Assembly: GCA_041659845.1 (NCBI GenBank)
Contig: JBAZXM010000003.1
Location: 4,641-68,640, forward strand
Length of the DNA stretch: 64,000 nucleotides
Direction: 5' to 3'
Origin: Minisyncoccota bacterium
GTDB taxonomy: Bacteria > Patescibacteriota > Minisyncoccia > Phycocordibacterales > UBA9973
Part shown: piece after piece, positions 17,206 to 63,358 of the stretch
Numbering within the stretch: the stretch's first letter is position 1
How the letters are laid out: each line of letters opens with the position of its first letter
Notes under the pieces: generated by a model
What the model was told of the DNA's origin: nothing
The model's database searches: none
The model's input: the letters and a program-made list of their open reading frames with translations, nothing else
Program-made: the position numbers and the translations under genes

Positions 17206-17252
17206 AGTGATCGGTAGTTAATAATTAAGAATACCGAAAGTATAGCAAAAAA

Positions 17253-17285
17253 AAGAGCGCGCCGAAAGGCGCGCTCTTTTTTTTT
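17253..17285. terminator. bidirectional rho-independent terminator (AGAGCGCGCC-GAAA-GGCGCGCTCT)
   Basis: Perfect 10-bp GC stem flanked by A9 and T11; terminates the 23S-5S transcript. Confidence 0.8.
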
Positions 17286-17299
17286 ATTTGATTAATTGC

Positions 17300-17415
17300 T
17301 TTGTGTTGGCGATAGCCTACTTTCCCCTTTATGAGTATCATCGGCTCAACAAGGCTTAACTTCTCTGTTCGAAATGTAAAAAGGTGTTTCCCTTGCGACA
17401 AATCACCAACACGGA
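17300..17415 (-). rRNA. rrf: 5S rRNA
   Basis: Minus-strand sequence contains CGAACAGAGAAGTTAAGCC and CCGATGATACTC, with a terminal helix TGTTGGTGA/TCGCCAACA. Confidence 0.75.
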
Positions 17416-17581
17416 ACAATCAATCAATTCAACTTTTAAAAGCTAAGTAGTGAGGGTGATCTTACAAATGATCACCCCTGGGGCCTGTGGGAGATTTAAA
17501 TACTCCCATCCCTTGAGCTAAACTCAAGGTCCTAGAAAAACACAATAAAATGTGTTGAAAGAACAGGTTATCCCCCTTCGA

Positions 17582-17656
17582 GGACGCGACAGGATTCGAA
17601 CCTATGACCTCAACCCATGGGAAGGTTGCGCTCTGCCAGTGCTGAGCTACGCGTCC
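17582..17656 (-). tRNA. tRNA-like gene in 23S-5S spacer with an 8-nt anticodon loop (UUCCCAUG; Gly(CCC)-like, discriminator U)
   Basis: Minus-strand sequence is GGACGCG-TA-GCTC-AGCACTGGCA-GAGC-G-CAACC-TTCCCATG-GGTTG-AGGTC-ATAGG-TTCGAAT-CCTGT-CGCGTCC. The 7-bp acceptor and 5-bp anticodon stem are perfect and the T-loop is canonical. Confidence 0.6.
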
Positions 17657-17754
17657 GTAAAGAACAGTGTGAGAAAAATCTCACTACTTAACTTTCAAAT
17701 TTATTTGTTTGTGTATGTTTCTATGTCTCTTAAATATGTGATTTTCAAATTTCC

Positions 17755-21245
<3,491 letters not shown>

Positions 21246-21586
21246 TTCCTATTAGGAAATTTAAAAACCACATAAACGTTTCTCCCACAACCGCTTGTGC
21301 GGAGAAACATACACAAACAATATCCGCCACCTCTCTCCGAGGATGACGGACCAATTTTTCTGCCTACACTGCGGCTCAAAAGACCCAAAAATCATTTCAT
21401 TATTCCATAAATGGACTAATGAAACGATAATTTGCAATGCGACAGAATGAAGTTATCAAATATCGAGCCGTGCAGTCATTTTTTAACTAAAAATACCCCT
21501 TTCGGGGCAGAAAATAAAAAACCTTAGAGGTCTCTCAATTTCTCCGCCCGAAGAAATAATTAGTCATATTCATATCAGTAATTGCC

Positions 21587-21669: not shown

Positions 21670-21697
21670 TTGACAAATTATATAATAAGTGTATAAT
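21670..21697 (+). promoter_or_regulatory. sigma70-like promoter (TTGACA-16-TATAAT)
   Basis: ttgaca at 21670-21675 and tataat at 21692-21697, upstream of ORF 21728. Confidence 0.55.
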
Positions 21698-21727
21698 ATA
21701 GACAAACGTACTTAAAAAATAAAAATC

Positions 21728-54860: not shown

Positions 54861-56204
54861 TTATAAATCCTTAGAAATATATGCTATGAGTTCATCTTCA
54901 TGAATGCGATCTTGCTTGAGCGTATCGCGGTCGCGGACTGTGATGGTGCCGTCTTCGAGTGTTTGGAAGTCGATTACTACGCAGTATGGGGTTCCGATTT
55001 CATCTTGGCGGCGGTAACGCTTGCCGATATTACCATTGTCATCCCACATGATTTGAGGGATTGATGTTTTTACTTTTGCGTAGATTGCGCGAGCGCGCTC
55101 AACGAGCTCAGGTTTATTTTTCAAAAGTGGAGAAATCGCAGCCTTGACCGGAGCCATTTTGGGTGGGAATTTCAAATACACTCGATCCTCCCCTTCATTA
55201 CCCGGAACCGCTTCTTCGCGGTAAACACTTGAAATAAGTGCAAGCACAGTGCGGTCAAGACCGAATGAAGGCTCTATGACGTGCGGAATTATTTTTTCTC
55301 CCGATTCTTCATCAAGATACGAAAGTTCAACACCACTCACTTCGGAATGTTTAGTAAGGTCATAATTCGTACGATATGCGAGTCCATATAATTCTTTCTG
55401 TCCGAATGGAAATTCAAATTCAAAATCAATCGTGCGCTTAGAATAATGCGCGCGGTCATCTGCGGTAACTTCAACCTCATGGACTTTACCCATATCAATA
55501 CCGACATCATTAATCCACTCCAGCATCTCATCGCGGAAATATTCAAAATATTTTTCCCAATCTGATTCTTTCAAAAAGTATTCGATTTCCATCTGCTCGA
55601 ATTCTCGCACGCGAAAAATAAAATCTCGCGGAGTTATTTCGTTGCGGAATGCCTTGCCGATCTGTGCCAAACCGAATGGAAGCTTAGGATGAAATGAGTC
55701 GATAACATTTTTAAAATTAACAAACATCCCTTGCGCGGTCTCGGGGCGTAGATATGAAATAGATGAAGAATCTTCGACTGCTCCGACAGAAGTCTGGAAC
55801 ATCATATTAAAATTACGCTCCTCCCCGAAATTCCCGCCGCAATCAGGGCATTTGCTTTTATCATCCAAGTGATCGGTGCGGAAGCGGTGGTGGCATTTTT
55901 CACACTCAACCATCGGGTCGGAAAATCCAGAAACATGGCCGGAAGTTTTCCATACATTCTGATTCATTAAGATTGCCGCATCTATACCGTACATATCCTC
56001 ACGTTCATCGACGAATTTCCTCCACCAAAGTGCCTTAATGTTATTCTTCAAAACAACTCCCAAAGGACCGTAATCCCATGTGCCGGCAAGCCCACCATAA
56101 ATATCTGAGCCTTGGTAGATAAAGCCTTTACGCTTTGAAAGCGAAATAATCTTTTCCATTAATTGTTCATTTTTGATTAGAGACATAGCAGTATCATACA
56201 CCAA
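54861..56204 (-). CDS. glyQS: glycyl-tRNA synthetase (alpha2 dimeric type)
   Basis: Class II motifs; N-terminus YQGSDIYGGLAGTWDYGPLG; 447 aa. Confidence 0.9.
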   Translation of the reverse strand: MVYDTAMSLIKNEQLMEKIISLSKRKGFIYQGSDIYGGLAGTWDYGPLGVVLKNNIKALWWRKFVDEREDMYGIDAAILMNQNVWKTSGHVSGFSDPMVECEKCHHRFRTDHLDDKSKCPDCGGNFGEERNFNMMFQTSVGAVEDSSSISYLRPETAQGMFVNFKNVIDSFHPKLPFGLAQIGKAFRNEITPRDFIFRVREFEQMEIEYFLKESDWEKYFEYFRDEMLEWINDVGIDMGKVHEVEVTADDRAHYSKRTIDFEFEFPFGQKELYGLAYRTNYDLTKHSEVSGVELSYLDEESGEKIIPHVIEPSFGLDRTVLALISSVYREEAVPGNEGEDRVYLKFPPKMAPVKAAISPLLKNKPELVERARAIYAKVKTSIPQIMWDDNGNIGKRYRRQDEIGTPYCVVIDFQTLEDGTITVRDRDTLKQDRIHEDELIAYISKDL

Positions 56205-59878: not shown

Positions 59879-62800
59879 TTACTTTTCTATTGTAACCTTA
59901 AACACCATATCTTCGATCTTGATTTCGGTGCCGTCATTTTCAGTAAATGAAACATCTTTTACCAGCACAGTCTTTTTGAGATCCGATTCGAATTTTTCTA
60001 TTAGAGATTTGCCAATACTATCTGTTTGGATTGAAAGAGAAATCACATCACTAGGGGTGAGCCCTTGTTGCTTACGCAAATCTTGCAATCCTCGGACAAG
60101 CTCGCGATAATTCCCTTCGGCTTTCAATTCTGGAGTGATTGTAGTATCAAACTCAAAATCCTCTGCGACTGCCGAATTTTGTACCACATTTTTAATATTA
60201 AGTTCGTCTTTAATTATTTCACTGTATTCTATTCCTAATTCGTAATTTTTAATTCGTAATTCATTCAGTGGTTGTCGTACTGGAATACCAAGCTTCTTGC
60301 GGAGTGCATTGCCTCCAGTACAGATAGTGCGCACTGTTTCTATGTTTTTAATAAGTTCTTCATCAGTAGTCCGAGATTCCGGCCAATTTTCAAGATGCAC
60401 CGATTCTTTATCTCCTTCATTCTTCAATTTCTGCCATATGTCTTCCGAAGCGAACGGCGCAAACGGTGCCATAAATTTCGCAAGGTTGATGAGAACAATA
60501 TAAAGTGTTTGTTTTGATTCCGCGTCCACTTCTTTTATACGATCACGCGAGCGGCGGACGTACCAAGTTGAGAGGTCGTCGATAAATGAGCGGATTAGAC
60601 GAACTGGTTCCAAGATTTTGAATCCATCCAAATGGTCAGTTATTTTTTTATTCAAGACATTCAGCTCCGCGAGAATCCACTGATCGAGTACATTCTTCGG
60701 CATGAAGTCGGTGGGCTGCGTCTCTAAATTCTTGTCTCGATACAATTCATAAAAAGCGAGAACATTATAGAGCAGGTTGAAAACTTTATTATGAAGTTCT
60801 GCGACAGTCTTTTCGTCGAAATTTTTAGAATCTCCCGGCTGATTAACTGCATACATCCACAATCGGAGCGTATCAACGCCGTATTTATCAATCATCGTCC
60901 ACGGGTCAACAATGTTTCCCTGTGACTTCGACATCTTCTTACCCTTTTCATCGAGAATATGCCCTAAGCAAATAACATTCTTGTATGCCTTACCGCGACC
61001 CATGAGAATTCCGACAGCATGAAGCGTGTAGAACCATCCGCGAGTCTGATCGATTGCCTCGGAAATATAATCTGCCGGGTAGCCTTTGGTATCTACCCAT
61101 TCTTTGTTCTCAAACGGATAGTGATCCTGAGCAAAAGGCATCGCGCCGGAATCAAACCAAACATCCATAACTTCTTTCACACGCTTCATCGGCTCTCCGT
61201 CATCAGACACGAGCTCAATCTCATCGATATATGGTCGATGCAAATCAAGTTCATACTTTTCATTGTGCGGAATTGGAACAAAAGGCAATAGTCTAATCTC
61301 TGCATTATTCGGCGGATTGTTTAAATCATTTCTTGTTGCCATATCAGCAAAAGTAACCCCTTCTGCAATAAAATTCAGAGCTCGCTCTGTCCCGGAGTGA
61401 CTGATAATTAATATATTTTTTCCATCATACTTCGCATCAATATCATAGATAAAATCTCCAGCCCTATTCACGACATCAGCGAAGCTTTCTCCGTCAGAAA
61501 ATCTTTTCTCGGGTTCAAATACATAATCATGGTCATAGTATTGCTTCATGGCAGAACGATCTTTTCCGATAAATTCAGAACTGATCTGCCATTCATGAAT
61601 GCGATCATCATAAACAACCTGATCTAAAGGAAAGTTTAATTGCTGGCATAGTATGGCAGTAGTTTCTTTCGTACGCACGTATGGAGAAGATATTATGATA
61701 TCAACTTTTTGATTAAACTCTTTTGTTTTTTCTAAAACTTGTTTTTGCCCGTTTTCAGTCAAAGGGCATGGGGCGGAATCAACAACACATTCCTCAGTAA
61801 CATTATTTACCGCTTCTCCATGACGCATAACAAAGTAGGTATTCCCGGATTTTTTGGTTTTTTTCTTAAGGTCTTCCAGCGAGCCTATGACCTCTGTTTT
61901 TCCGCTCTCCGTTGTCCATATCGGCAACGGAGTACCCCAATAACGCTCGCGGGAAATCGCCCAGTCTTTGATATCCTTCAGCCATTCGCCGAAGCGCCCA
62001 TCGCGAATATGAGCAGGTTCCCAATTAATCGATTGATTTTCTTTAACCATCTCGTCGCTAAGAGATGACATGCGGATATACCACGAATCACGTGCGAAGT
62101 AGATAAGCGGAGTCTTACAGCGCCAACAATGCGGATAGGAGTGCTCGTATTTTTCTTTTTTGAAGAGTAGTCCACGATGAGCCAAATCTTTGATTATTTC
62201 CACAGCCGTAGCTTCATCCTTCACAAATTTCCCCGCCAGGAATCCTGTCTCAGGCTTGAATGTTCCGTCATCATTCACGAGGTGATACTTCGGCAAACCG
62301 ACTTTCGTCCCAAGCTCAAAGTCCTCCTGCCCGTACATTACAGCGGTGTGTACGATACCAGTACCGTCGGTCGTAGTCACGAAATCCGCCGGATAGACTT
62401 TAAAAGCATTTGGAAGTTTTTCCCTTTCCGCACCGCTGACATCATCTTGAAGAAATGGGTAGAGTGGTTCGTATTCGAGACCGACAAGATTCGTACCTTT
62501 TATTTTTTCTATAATTTCATATGCTTCAGTGATAACTGACAATCGAGATCCAGCAAGATAAATAAAGCCATCGCCGATTTTAATTTTTACATAATCAATT
62601 TTCTCCCCCACGGCTAGCCCAACATTACCGGGCAATGTCCATGGTGTCGTCGTCCAAGCTAGAATATATTCATTCTCCTTCCCTGAAATTTTGAATTTCA
62701 CATACACAGACAAATCTTTCACATCTTCATATCCTTGCGCGAGTTCATGCGAAGAAAGCGCTGTTCCGCAACGCGGGCACCATGGCACAACCTTGTAGTC

Positions 62801-63358
62801 TTTATAGAGAAAATTCTTATCCGAAACATTTTTTAAAACATTCCAAACGGATTCTATATATTTGGATTCATAAGTGACATACGGATTTTCCTGATCTACC
62901 CAATATCCGATACGATGAGTAAATTTATTCCAAATGTCCAAAAATTCCCAAACGCTTTCTTTACATTCTTTGTTAAATTGCGCTATTCCGTAGTTTTCAA
63001 TTTCTTTCTTTGACGACAACCCGAGCTTTTTCTCCACCTGTAACTCCACCGGTAAACCGTGTGTATCCCAGCCGCCCTTTCTGCGTACATGAAATCCGCG
63101 CATTGTCTTGTAGCGAGGGATAATATCTTTGAATGCACGAGCCTCCAAGTGGTGAATACCCGGCTTGCCGTTCGCCGTCGGCGGACCTTCGTAAAAAACG
63201 AATTCACCCTTGGGCGCTTCTTTTTCCAAAGATTTTTTGAATATCTGCTGCTCATTCCAGAATTCCAGAATTTTTTCTTCACGCTCTGCAGCAGCTGATT
63301 TTTCTTGCTTTTTTTCCGAAGGTTCCATAGAAATCACTTTAGCATATTCCTGCTTCAA
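59879..63358 (-). CDS. ileS: isoleucyl-tRNA synthetase (type 2) with an inserted ~200-aa histidine-phosphatase (PGAM-family) domain
   Basis: P(T)ANG..HHL (HIGH), editing-domain WTTTPWTLPGN, WAISRERYWGTPLP, then the insertion FVMRHGEAVNN..SSPYVRTKETT..DDRIHEW..ILIISHSGTERAL, then LHRPYIDE..DVWFDSG..KMSKS. Confidence 0.9.
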   Translation of the reverse strand: MKQEYAKVISMEPSEKKQEKSAAAEREEKILEFWNEQQIFKKSLEKEAPKGEFVFYEGPPTANGKPGIHHLEARAFKDIIPRYKTMRGFHVRRKGGWDTHGLPVELQVEKKLGLSSKKEIENYGIAQFNKECKESVWEFLDIWNKFTHRIGYWVDQENPYVTYESKYIESVWNVLKNVSDKNFLYKDYKVVPWCPRCGTALSSHELAQGYEDVKDLSVYVKFKISGKENEYILAWTTTPWTLPGNVGLAVGEKIDYVKIKIGDGFIYLAGSRLSVITEAYEIIEKIKGTNLVGLEYEPLYPFLQDDVSGAEREKLPNAFKVYPADFVTTTDGTGIVHTAVMYGQEDFELGTKVGLPKYHLVNDDGTFKPETGFLAGKFVKDEATAVEIIKDLAHRGLLFKKEKYEHSYPHCWRCKTPLIYFARDSWYIRMSSLSDEMVKENQSINWEPAHIRDGRFGEWLKDIKDWAISRERYWGTPLPIWTTESGKTEVIGSLEDLKKKTKKSGNTYFVMRHGEAVNNVTEECVVDSAPCPLTENGQKQVLEKTKEFNQKVDIIISSPYVRTKETTAILCQQLNFPLDQVVYDDRIHEWQISSEFIGKDRSAMKQYYDHDYVFEPEKRFSDGESFADVVNRAGDFIYDIDAKYDGKNILIISHSGTERALNFIAEGVTFADMATRNDLNNPPNNAEIRLLPFVPIPHNEKYELDLHRPYIDEIELVSDDGEPMKRVKEVMDVWFDSGAMPFAQDHYPFENKEWVDTKGYPADYISEAIDQTRGWFYTLHAVGILMGRGKAYKNVICLGHILDEKGKKMSKSQGNIVDPWTMIDKYGVDTLRLWMYAVNQPGDSKNFDEKTVAELHNKVFNLLYNVLAFYELYRDKNLETQPTDFMPKNVLDQWILAELNVLNKKITDHLDGFKILEPVRLIRSFIDDLSTWYVRRSRDRIKEVDAESKQTLYIVLINLAKFMAPFAPFASEDIWQKLKNEGDKESVHLENWPESRTTDEELIKNIETVRTICTGGNALRKKLGIPVRQPLNELRIKNYELGIEYSEIIKDELNIKNVVQNSAVAEDFEFDTTITPELKAEGNYRELVRGLQDLRKQQGLTPSDVISLSIQTDSIGKSLIEKFESDLKKTVLVKDVSFTENDGTEIKIEDMVFKVTIEK
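61247..61852 (-). other. histidine-phosphatase/phosphoglycerate-mutase-family domain embedded in IleS (approx. residues 503-704)
   Basis: PROSITE-like [LIVM]-x-R-H-G-[EQ]-x-x-x-N matches VMRHGEAVNN. SPYVRTKETT, an E-containing RIHEW loop and SHSG supply the remaining catalytic positions. Confidence 0.7.

Follow-up and report, generated by a model that had tools for sequence, protein, structure and literature searches.

We found that a transfer RNA (tRNA)-shaped element with an 8-nucleotide (nt) anticodon loop lies between the 23S and 5S ribosomal RNA (rRNA) genes of a Candidatus Paceibacterota bacterium, a member of the Candidate Phyla Radiation (CPR). The element is probably a non-decoding tRNA-like module that is kept as a substrate of RNase P and RNase Z in the precursor rRNA (pre-rRNA). 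The stretch analyzed, called the window throughout, comprises 64,000 nt of contig JBAZXM010000003.1. The element is real, and the sequence contains every part that the first-pass annotation had described: a cloverleaf with a 7-base-pair (bp) acceptor stem, a D-arm, a T-arm, a 5-nt variable loop, and a 5-bp anticodon stem enclosing 8 nt. The span given there (17582-17656) was right for the structure and wrong at its start, where the discriminator U at 17581 had been left out. The element is one instance of a wider, apparently undescribed set of tRNA-like modules in the rRNA operons of Paceibacterota, in which the tRNA frame is conserved and the anticodon arm is arbitrary. Its parts, with the tools that identified them, are the following:

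17581..17656, minus strand: tRNA-shaped element, 76 nt including the discriminator U73 at 17581 (ARAGORN, Rfam, covariance model R1, RNAfold)
17616..17623, minus strand: anticodon loop of 8 nt, UUCCCAUG (sequence and Rfam alignment; the RNAfold alternative has a U.G closing pair and a 6-nt loop)
17577..17580, minus strand: 3' trailer CGAA, directly after the discriminator; CCA is not encoded

Read along the minus strand, the acceptor stem pairs GGACGCG (17656-17650) with CGCGTCC (17588-17582) and is followed by U8-A9. The D-stem is GCTC/GAGC with GG present in the D-loop, the anticodon stem pairs CAACC (17628-17624) with GGTTG (17615-17611) over 5 bp, the variable loop is AGGTC (5 nt), and the T-arm ATAGG-TTCGAAT-CCTGT includes one U.G pair. 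All 21 stem pairs are formed, and U8, A14, the GG, and the T-loop are intact, so the disrupted stems of a pseudogene are absent. The body is that of an elongator cloverleaf: a 7-bp acceptor stem, a 4-bp D-stem, a 5-bp T-stem, a T-loop of the form TTCRANY, GG in the D-loop, and U8. An elongator tRNA also has a 7-nt anticodon loop (positions 32-38, with U33 and a purine at 37), but here the loop, whose DNA letters at 17623-17616 are TTCCCATG, has 8 nt, or alternatively 6 nt. It is laid out as UU-CCC-AUG: C occurs three times, and the additional base is on the 3' side of A37.

The tRNA gene finder and the covariance-model and folding checks that had been suggested for this loop all agreed with the description. 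ARAGORN reported the element as tRNA-??? with the four-base anticodon 'ccca'. The Rfam tRNA model scored 53.3 bits (gathering score 29; E = 1.2e-8 over the window) and aligned every arm, with one inserted base in the anticodon loop. The covariance model R1, described below, gave 69.7 bits and no second match in the window. The cloverleaf was the minimum-energy fold in RNAfold (z = -2.9 versus shuffles), with a U.G pair across the anticodon loop giving an alternative 6-bp stem and the 6-nt loop UCCCAU. The predicted loop was therefore 8 or 6 nt, never 7. Registers that would yield a 7-nt loop were rejected: none of them pairs, and the U.G-closed 6-nt loop is the sole alternative.

The position of the element between the two rRNA genes was borne out by Rfam matches, both on the minus strand. 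The 23S gene is about 3.5 kb long because of its insertions, and it is unlinked to a 16S gene there, the Rfam scan having found no small-subunit rRNA match within the 64-kb window. The surrounding features, in the order of transcription, are these:

21677..21705, minus strand: best promoter-like site, TTGTCT-17-TATAAT, upstream of the 23S gene (a consensus match alone)
21303..21321, minus strand: 5' strand of an extended 23S processing stem, AUUGUUUGUGUAUGUUUCU, in the leader (RNAduplex)
17753..21254, minus strand: 23S rRNA gene, about 3.5 kb with insertions (Rfam LSU_rRNA_bacteria, 2348 bits)
17703..17722, minus strand: 3' strand of this 23S stem, AGAAACAUACACAAACAAAU, 46 nt upstream of the element
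17454..17529, minus strand: three linker hairpins (17511-17529, 17489-17507, and 17454-17477) between the element and the 5S stem (spacer fold)
17417..17432, minus strand: 5S leader strand UUGAAUUGAUUGAUUG, pairing with the 5S trailer at 17288-17298 (RNAduplex, spacer after the element versus 5S trailer)
17304..17410, minus strand: 5S rRNA gene (Rfam 5S_rRNA, 66.1 bits)
17247..17284, minus strand: intrinsic terminator past the 5S gene, a 17-bp stem followed by a T-run, the sole strong terminator found

The predicted leader/trailer duplex around the 23S gene has an energy of -61.7 kcal/mol (RNAduplex) and contains a perfect 19-bp segment (21303-21321 / 17703-17722) beside helix 1. The element, which follows the 23S 3' end by 96 nt and precedes the 5S 5' end by 170 nt, is predicted to stand in the linker that separates the two processing stems. 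Between the 23S gene and the element, no promoter-like site was found. Since those on the minus strand all lie upstream of the 23S gene, and the strong terminator follows the 5S gene, the element would most simply be co-transcribed with the 23S and 5S rRNAs. A transcription unit of its own was rejected, as no promoter-like site serves it and just a weak hairpin (17669-17684) lies upstream. As in a processing element, a tRNA-shaped acceptor/T domain is thus found inside the precursor of another RNA, with no promoter or terminator of its own.

In order to compare this element with its counterparts, relatives were collected by using the conserved 23S 3' end as the anchor, which is unbiased as to tRNA. 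The sample consisted of 29 species-representative genomes and 43 metagenome contigs of the same clade, plus contigs reached through RodA homologues; loci in relatives are given here by L numbers. The neighboring RodA matches, at 100% identity, a protein of a Candidatus Paceibacterota metagenome-assembled genome; its second-best match has 74%. On P0002, P0003, and P0011, the contigs of the closest RodA homologues, no rRNA operon lies beside the gene cluster. ARAGORN misses every element with a long insert, and a structure scanner and a covariance model were used in its place. This model, R1, was built from eight elements of near-normal length and holds the acceptor, D, and T helices only, with no anticodon-arm structure. 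It recovered all held-out long-insert elements at 36-52 bits and gave no match in short spacers. The anticodon arms of the long elements were parsed by hand; the model alignment misplaced their inserts.

The frame of the tRNA proved to be conserved. Over 22 distinct elements in the R1 alignment, 96.4% of the stem cells were paired (acceptor 95.8%, D 92.5%, T 100%), compared with just 38-49% in slid-register controls, and 13 of 16 pairs had changed on both sides. The stems of the window element and L005 differed by three compensatory and three one-sided changes, with no broken pairs. L038 and L024, which are positional orthologues in the same intron hairpin, differed by three compensatory stem changes, again with none broken. 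Moreover, L005 (8555-8644) and L026 (2373-2456) combine the T-loop UUUGAAU (C56->U) with a D-loop change of GG->GA, a combination that fits compensation in the tertiary 19:56 pair and, with it, selection for the tRNA elbow.

In contrast, the anticodon arms were extremely diverse. L005 has a 9-bp anticodon stem and a 14-nt loop, L026 the same 9-bp stem with a 9-nt loop, L001 a 6-nt loop, and L013 a 9-nt loop together with a 48-nt D-loop, while L022, L040, and L051 have inserts of 36-41 nt in the anticodon arm. The A34 'anticodons' of L040c and L022c are AUA and ACA, respectively, and L004a contains a D-loop insert of about 75 nt in an element of 144 nt. The loops of L038 (7 nt, with G37 and a 7-nt variable loop) and L024 (8 nt) are unrelated in sequence. 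The sole canonical element is L004b, a tRNA-Val(UAC) that also occurs in L002, so a canonical anticodon loop was present in 1 of about 15 distinct rRNA-operon elements. Positional counterparts conserved neither anticodon nor loop, having 6-, 9-, or 14-nt loops or inserts of 36-41 nt. Across relatives, the acceptor/T domain is kept and the anticodon region is degenerate, as in a processing element. As a separate observation on these spacers, those of L057, L058, L051, and L060 contain a second 5S-like sequence upstream of the recognized 5S; it starts with the 5S 5' motif UAGUGUUGGUGAUUUGAC, has large internal insertions, and is possibly a degenerate or insertion-bearing 5S copy.

These comparisons bear on the possibility that the extra base is an assembly or sequencing indel and that the true sequence is a spacer tRNA-Gly(CCC) with a canonical 7-nt loop, which we regard as very doubtful. 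Nearly every rRNA-operon element, across many independent assemblies and samples, has a non-canonical anticodon arm, 8-nt loops are seen again in L024 and L042, and the loop itself holds no long homopolymer, its longest run being CCC. What speaks for such an error is that the loop is one base away from normal, that a single metagenome-assembled contig without an independent assembly is the source, and that L004 has a canonical tRNA at the same position.

We also found tRNA-shaped modules within the 23S genes of relatives, on the 23S strand (ARAGORN and R1), at two sites:

L038 1791-1865, L017 2049-2123, L044 5246-5320, L046 1669-1743, 23S strand: intron-hairpin modules (ARAGORN, R1)
L048 1827-1901, L056 5189-5263, L070 918-992, L024 891-967, 23S strand: intron-hairpin modules (ARAGORN, R1)
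L042 3062-3146 and 3182-3255: two tandem modules at the tip of the extended 23S helix 45, the classical site of intervening sequences (IVS)

The intron-hairpin modules cap a long hairpin that belongs to a group I intron-like insertion, at about position 2620 of the large-subunit rRNA model. ARAGORN labels them 'Ile(gat)', despite their G37 and 7-nt variable loop. In L024 the anticodon loop is the 8-nt UUAACCAA, and the second L042 module (L042b) also has an 8-nt loop, UUUAAUAC. The Rfam Intron_gpI model scored 50.5 bits at the insertion site in L005, and 34.7 bits in L038 and 30.7 bits in the window, the latter two being below the gathering score. At the same site, the insertion in the window 23S (18120-18441, minus strand) has a long, nearly perfect plain hairpin (18373-18441) instead of a module. 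If RNase P and RNase Z cut the L042 modules, the 23S rRNA of that organism would be fragmented. Helix 45 of the window 23S is likewise lengthened at 19949-20006 (minus strand) into a long hairpin resembling a short IVS, at the site of the L042 modules. In the relatives, the modules were confined to parts of the rRNA operon that are not in the mature rRNAs, namely the 23S-5S spacer, the 23S group I intron hairpin, and the helix-45 insertion.

Most modules in the spacer, the intron, and the IVS share a CGAA or CGCA trailer, and a few encode CCA. The trailer directly after the discriminator is CGAA in the window, L005, L026, L038, L017, L048, and L024, and CGCA or CGCT in L001, L004, and L042b. 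This shared C-G-A/C-A trailer may serve as a 3'-processing determinant or reflect a common origin. The free-standing tRNA-Ser genes have neither an encoded CCA nor a CGAA/CGCA trailer. Since these genes encode no CCA, the cell must possess activities for tRNA 3' processing and CCA addition, which could act on the element as well.

RNase P, RNase Z, and the CCA-adding enzyme recognize the acceptor/T minihelix with the D/T elbow, and the ribosome and most synthetases read the anticodon region. Because the conserved part of the modules is what the tRNA-processing endonucleases recognize, and the variable part is what the ribosome reads, we propose that the element is a substrate of these endonucleases. 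A transcript starting at the promoter ahead of the 23S gene and stopping at the terminator after the 5S gene would include the element along with the rRNAs, and the element would be placed in the linker that separates the 23S processing stem from the 5S processing stem. Selection would preserve the L-shape of the tRNA, that is, the acceptor stem, the D-arm, the T-arm, and the D/T-loop elbow. RNase P would make the 5' cut at G1 (17656), and RNase Z or an equivalent the 3' cut after U73 (~17581), so that cutting at the element would sever and clear the 23S-5S linker. The anticodon arm, being unneeded for cleavage, would drift or be disabled, here by one extra loop base. A lost or disabled anticodon loop would be tolerated, and perhaps even favored, in an RNA made in step with ribosomes. 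We infer both the cutting by RNase P and RNase Z and its benefit to rRNA maturation. Among the options that the first-pass annotation had listed, a processing signal of the rRNA transcript is the one that fits the comparative evidence best, and the quadruplet-reading tRNA is the one that is not supported.

Several points weigh against this proposal. First of all, the element is optional: at least one tRNA-like element was present in 8 of 51 distinct complete 23S-5S spacers, a count that also agrees with the earlier remark that this position is uncommon, and the other 43 have none, most of these being just 53-217 nt long and too short for one. An optional element cannot be indispensable to the maturation of 23S and 5S. 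Each of these rRNAs has flanking stems of its own, which are possibly sufficient for processing. Moreover, a cut at the element, 96 nt and 170 nt away, would not directly make a mature rRNA end, unlike the cut in the archaeon Haloferax that is compared below. The orthology of the window element with L005 and L026 is based on position, D-arm, and CGAA trailer rather than on flanks that can be aligned. Detection is less likely for elements whose stems are broken, so part of the intact-frame pattern could be ascertainment, and degenerate relics do exist (L001a, at 14.7 bits, L023, and L060). L001 and L004 have identical RodA and flanks 94.5-96% identical over several kilobases, but different spacer modules (L001 320-690; L004 157-570). 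Because near-identical flanks thus enclose different modules, these loci indicate that modules are replaced, or swapped like cassettes, within a species-level cluster, and some of the differences counted above may be module replacements rather than compensatory evolution in place. The cleavage of the element by RNase P and RNase Z is a prediction from structure and comparison.

Some of the same observations would be expected of a decaying Gly(CCC)-like tRNA gene that lost decoding through a 1-nt insertion, has no function now, and keeps its cloverleaf since the lesion is recent. The occurrence in 8 of 51 spacers is sporadic, modules are swapped between strains that are 95% identical, and a graded series leads from the canonical tRNA-Val of L004 through loop lesions to the degenerate L001a, L023, and L060. 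Removing one loop base (U or G) would give the normal Gly(CCC) loop UUCCCAN, and U73 is Gly-like by the rules of Escherichia coli. Nevertheless, we consider decay rather unlikely. The lesions cluster in the anticodon arm and D-loop, while 96.4% of the stem cells are still paired, and a canonical anticodon loop was never combined with mismatched stems in any element. All four single-base length changes (window, L001b, L024, and L042b) are located in the anticodon loop, whose 7 nt make up about 9% of the molecule; the chance of this would be ~0.09^4 as an illustrative figure. The compensatory substitutions between positional orthologues, three for L038 versus L024, and the possible tertiary 19:56 covariation in L005 and L026 also argue against it. 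Despite these compensatory changes at the level of the family, this single copy may have evolved neutrally.

The loop had also been likened to that of sufD-type +1 frameshift suppressors with CCCC. In sufD, a C is inserted between positions 33 and 34 of tRNA-Gly, giving a CCCC that matches GGG-G (PMC4238358). The loop of the element has CCC, with the extra base 3' of A37, and the comparison is inexact. A functional decoder with an expanded loop, either a +1 suppressor or quadruplet reader (GGG-N or UGGG) or a triplet decoder tolerating 8 nt, is in our view very unlikely indeed. The perfect cloverleaf, U33, and A37 after CCC are compatible with it, 8-nt loops can bind the A site and shift +1 with the insertion on either side of the anticodon (PMC4238358), and L024 (UU-AACC-AA) and L042b (UU-UAAU-AC) also match the pattern YU-NNNN-R-N. 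However, the anticodon is not CCCC, and the 64-kb window contains no gene needing +1 decoding: no split genes and no in-frame GGG/UGGG shift sites were found there. The search for GGGN frameshift sites that had been recommended yielded 14 adjacent pairs of open reading frames (ORFs) offset by +1, which were ordinary short overlaps of neighboring genes, with no in-frame GGG or UGGG in the overlaps. GGG is an ordinary codon in the window (116 of 14,008), and a frameshifter at GGG-N made at rRNA levels would be harmful. Sister modules inside an intron and an rRNA insertion do not suit a decoder either. The strongest argument against a quadruplet decoder is that, in the sequences compared, neither loop length nor loop sequence is conserved among counterparts, and the suggested quadruplet-reading tRNA-Gly is not supported.

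The identity set of E. coli tRNA-Gly comprises U73, C35, C36, G1:C72, C2:G71, and G3:C70. The element shares U73, C35, C36, and G1:C72, but has G:C at 2:71 and A:U at 3:70, and the rules of the dimeric GlyRS of CPR bacteria may differ. A dimeric (alpha2-type) GlyRS is encoded in the window itself (54864-56204, minus strand; NF003211, 600 bits). The T-stem at 17589-17605 has the pairs A49-U65, U50.G64, and A51-U63, and non-proteogenic tRNA-Gly of Staphylococcus aureus has the weak EF-Tu-binding combination A49-U65, U50-A64, and A51-U63 (PMC7826273). These features raise the possibility of a stable trans-acting tRNA-like RNA: the excised 76-nt RNA, produced in step with ribosomes, would gain CCA and perhaps glycine and serve a purpose other than normal decoding; it might, for instance, donate its aminoacyl group for cell-wall synthesis, or be a tRNA mimic or decoy. 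The Gly-like U73 and C35/C36, the GlyRS in the window, the resemblance of the T-stem to the S. aureus combination (PMC7826273), and the high expression implied by rRNA co-transcription all accord with it. We nevertheless judge it improbable, given that the counterparts do not share the Gly-like features, L005 and L026 having A73, long anticodon arms, and 'tight' T-stems (G49.U65, C50-G64, and G51-C63). The pairs G-C at 2:71 and A-U at 3:70, versus C-G and G-C in the E. coli set, and the absence of a Fem-type transferase among the window genes also count against it. A weak-EF-Tu T-stem as a trait of the whole family was rejected, for it is true of the window element and not of L005/L026, and it is just a lead.

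A Pfam scan of about 40 window ORFs identified GlyRS, MetRS, IleRS, and EF-P; RNase P protein, RNase Z, RNase III, and Fem transferase were not found among them. The IleRS gene (59882-63358, minus strand; TIGR00392, 898 bits) is unusual for an IleRS in that a histidine-phosphatase-superfamily domain (PF00300) is inserted at residues 509-673.

Extending the proposed endonuclease-substrate role from the window to the clade, we can tentatively envisage a 'tRNA punctuation' of Paceibacterota pre-rRNA, a possible reading held with less confidence than the one for the window element. Non-decoding modules would be placed in every removable part of the pre-rRNA and would be excised or fragmented by RNase P and RNase Z. 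The sites would be the 23S-5S linker, the helix-45 intervening sequences, and the peripheral hairpins of 23S group I introns. Their loops (6, 8, 9, or 14 nt, or with inserts) might have been disabled to bar RNAs made at rRNA levels from translation. CPR bacteria have reduced genomes, unlinked rRNA genes, and insertion-rich rRNAs. If the reading is true, universal tRNA-processing enzymes have been reused for rRNA processing, in parallel with mitochondrial tRNA punctuation and the haloarchaeal 5S case. For annotation, such elements get called tRNAs with 'quadruplet anticodons' or odd identities; they are no evidence for recoding and should not be counted in tRNA complements. In the full-text literature, outside which most subscription journals lie, tRNA-like elements between bacterial 23S and 5S genes had no description that we could find, nor had tRNA-like modules in the rRNA insertions of CPR bacteria. 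Papers from recent years that deal with the rRNA insertions, ribosome features, and tRNA introns of CPR bacteria made no mention of tRNAs or tRNA-like structures in the 23S-5S spacer or in rRNA insertions.

Known systems resemble these modules in part. In bacterial rRNA operons, tRNA-Ile and tRNA-Ala genes lie between 16S and 23S and others are distal to 5S; they are functional, conserved decoders with canonical loops. Such spacer tRNAs share the rRNA transcript and are freed from it by RNase P and 3' processing, a step that helps to separate the rRNAs. The element is likewise a tRNA-shaped unit presumably co-transcribed with rRNA, but it differs in its 23S-5S site, non-canonical loop, and unconserved anticodon. 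With sufD-type +1 suppressors it shares an 8-nt anticodon loop on an otherwise normal body and a CCC core as in tRNA-Gly(CCC). The extra C of sufD, however, lies between 33 and 34 (CCCC), and sufD arose as a laboratory suppressor of a frameshift mutation (PMC4238358), whereas here the extra base is 3' of A37, no target sites were found in the window, and the loop is unconserved in relatives. In plant mitochondria, t-elements are described as tRNA-like structures that define mRNA ends (PMC1920247). They too are tRNA-like structures within longer transcripts that act as signals for RNase P and RNase Z rather than as adaptors, often with a degenerate anticodon region. They are organellar and flank mRNAs, whereas the modules described here belong to a bacterial rRNA operon (spacer, intron hairpin, and helix-45 insertion) and have fully canonical acceptor, D, and T arms. 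The closest documented analogue is in Haloferax volcanii, where, according to two reports, a tRNA-like structure upstream of 5S rRNA is thought to be recognized by tRNase Z (PMC5627344, PMC7714728). In both cases a tRNA-shaped structure that is non-decoding, or here probably so, lies in the 23S-5S region, and its proposed role in rRNA maturation is to attract a tRNA-processing endonuclease. The original finding on tRNase Z and 5S rRNA in Haloferax is said to be that of Hoelzle et al. in 2008. The Haloferax structure is archaeal, and its cleavage directly yields the mature 5S 5' end. In contrast, the element described here is bacterial (CPR) and optional in its clade; its cloverleaf is complete and stands apart from both rRNAs, by 170 nt from the 5S and by 96 nt from the 23S, and its cleavage is predicted.

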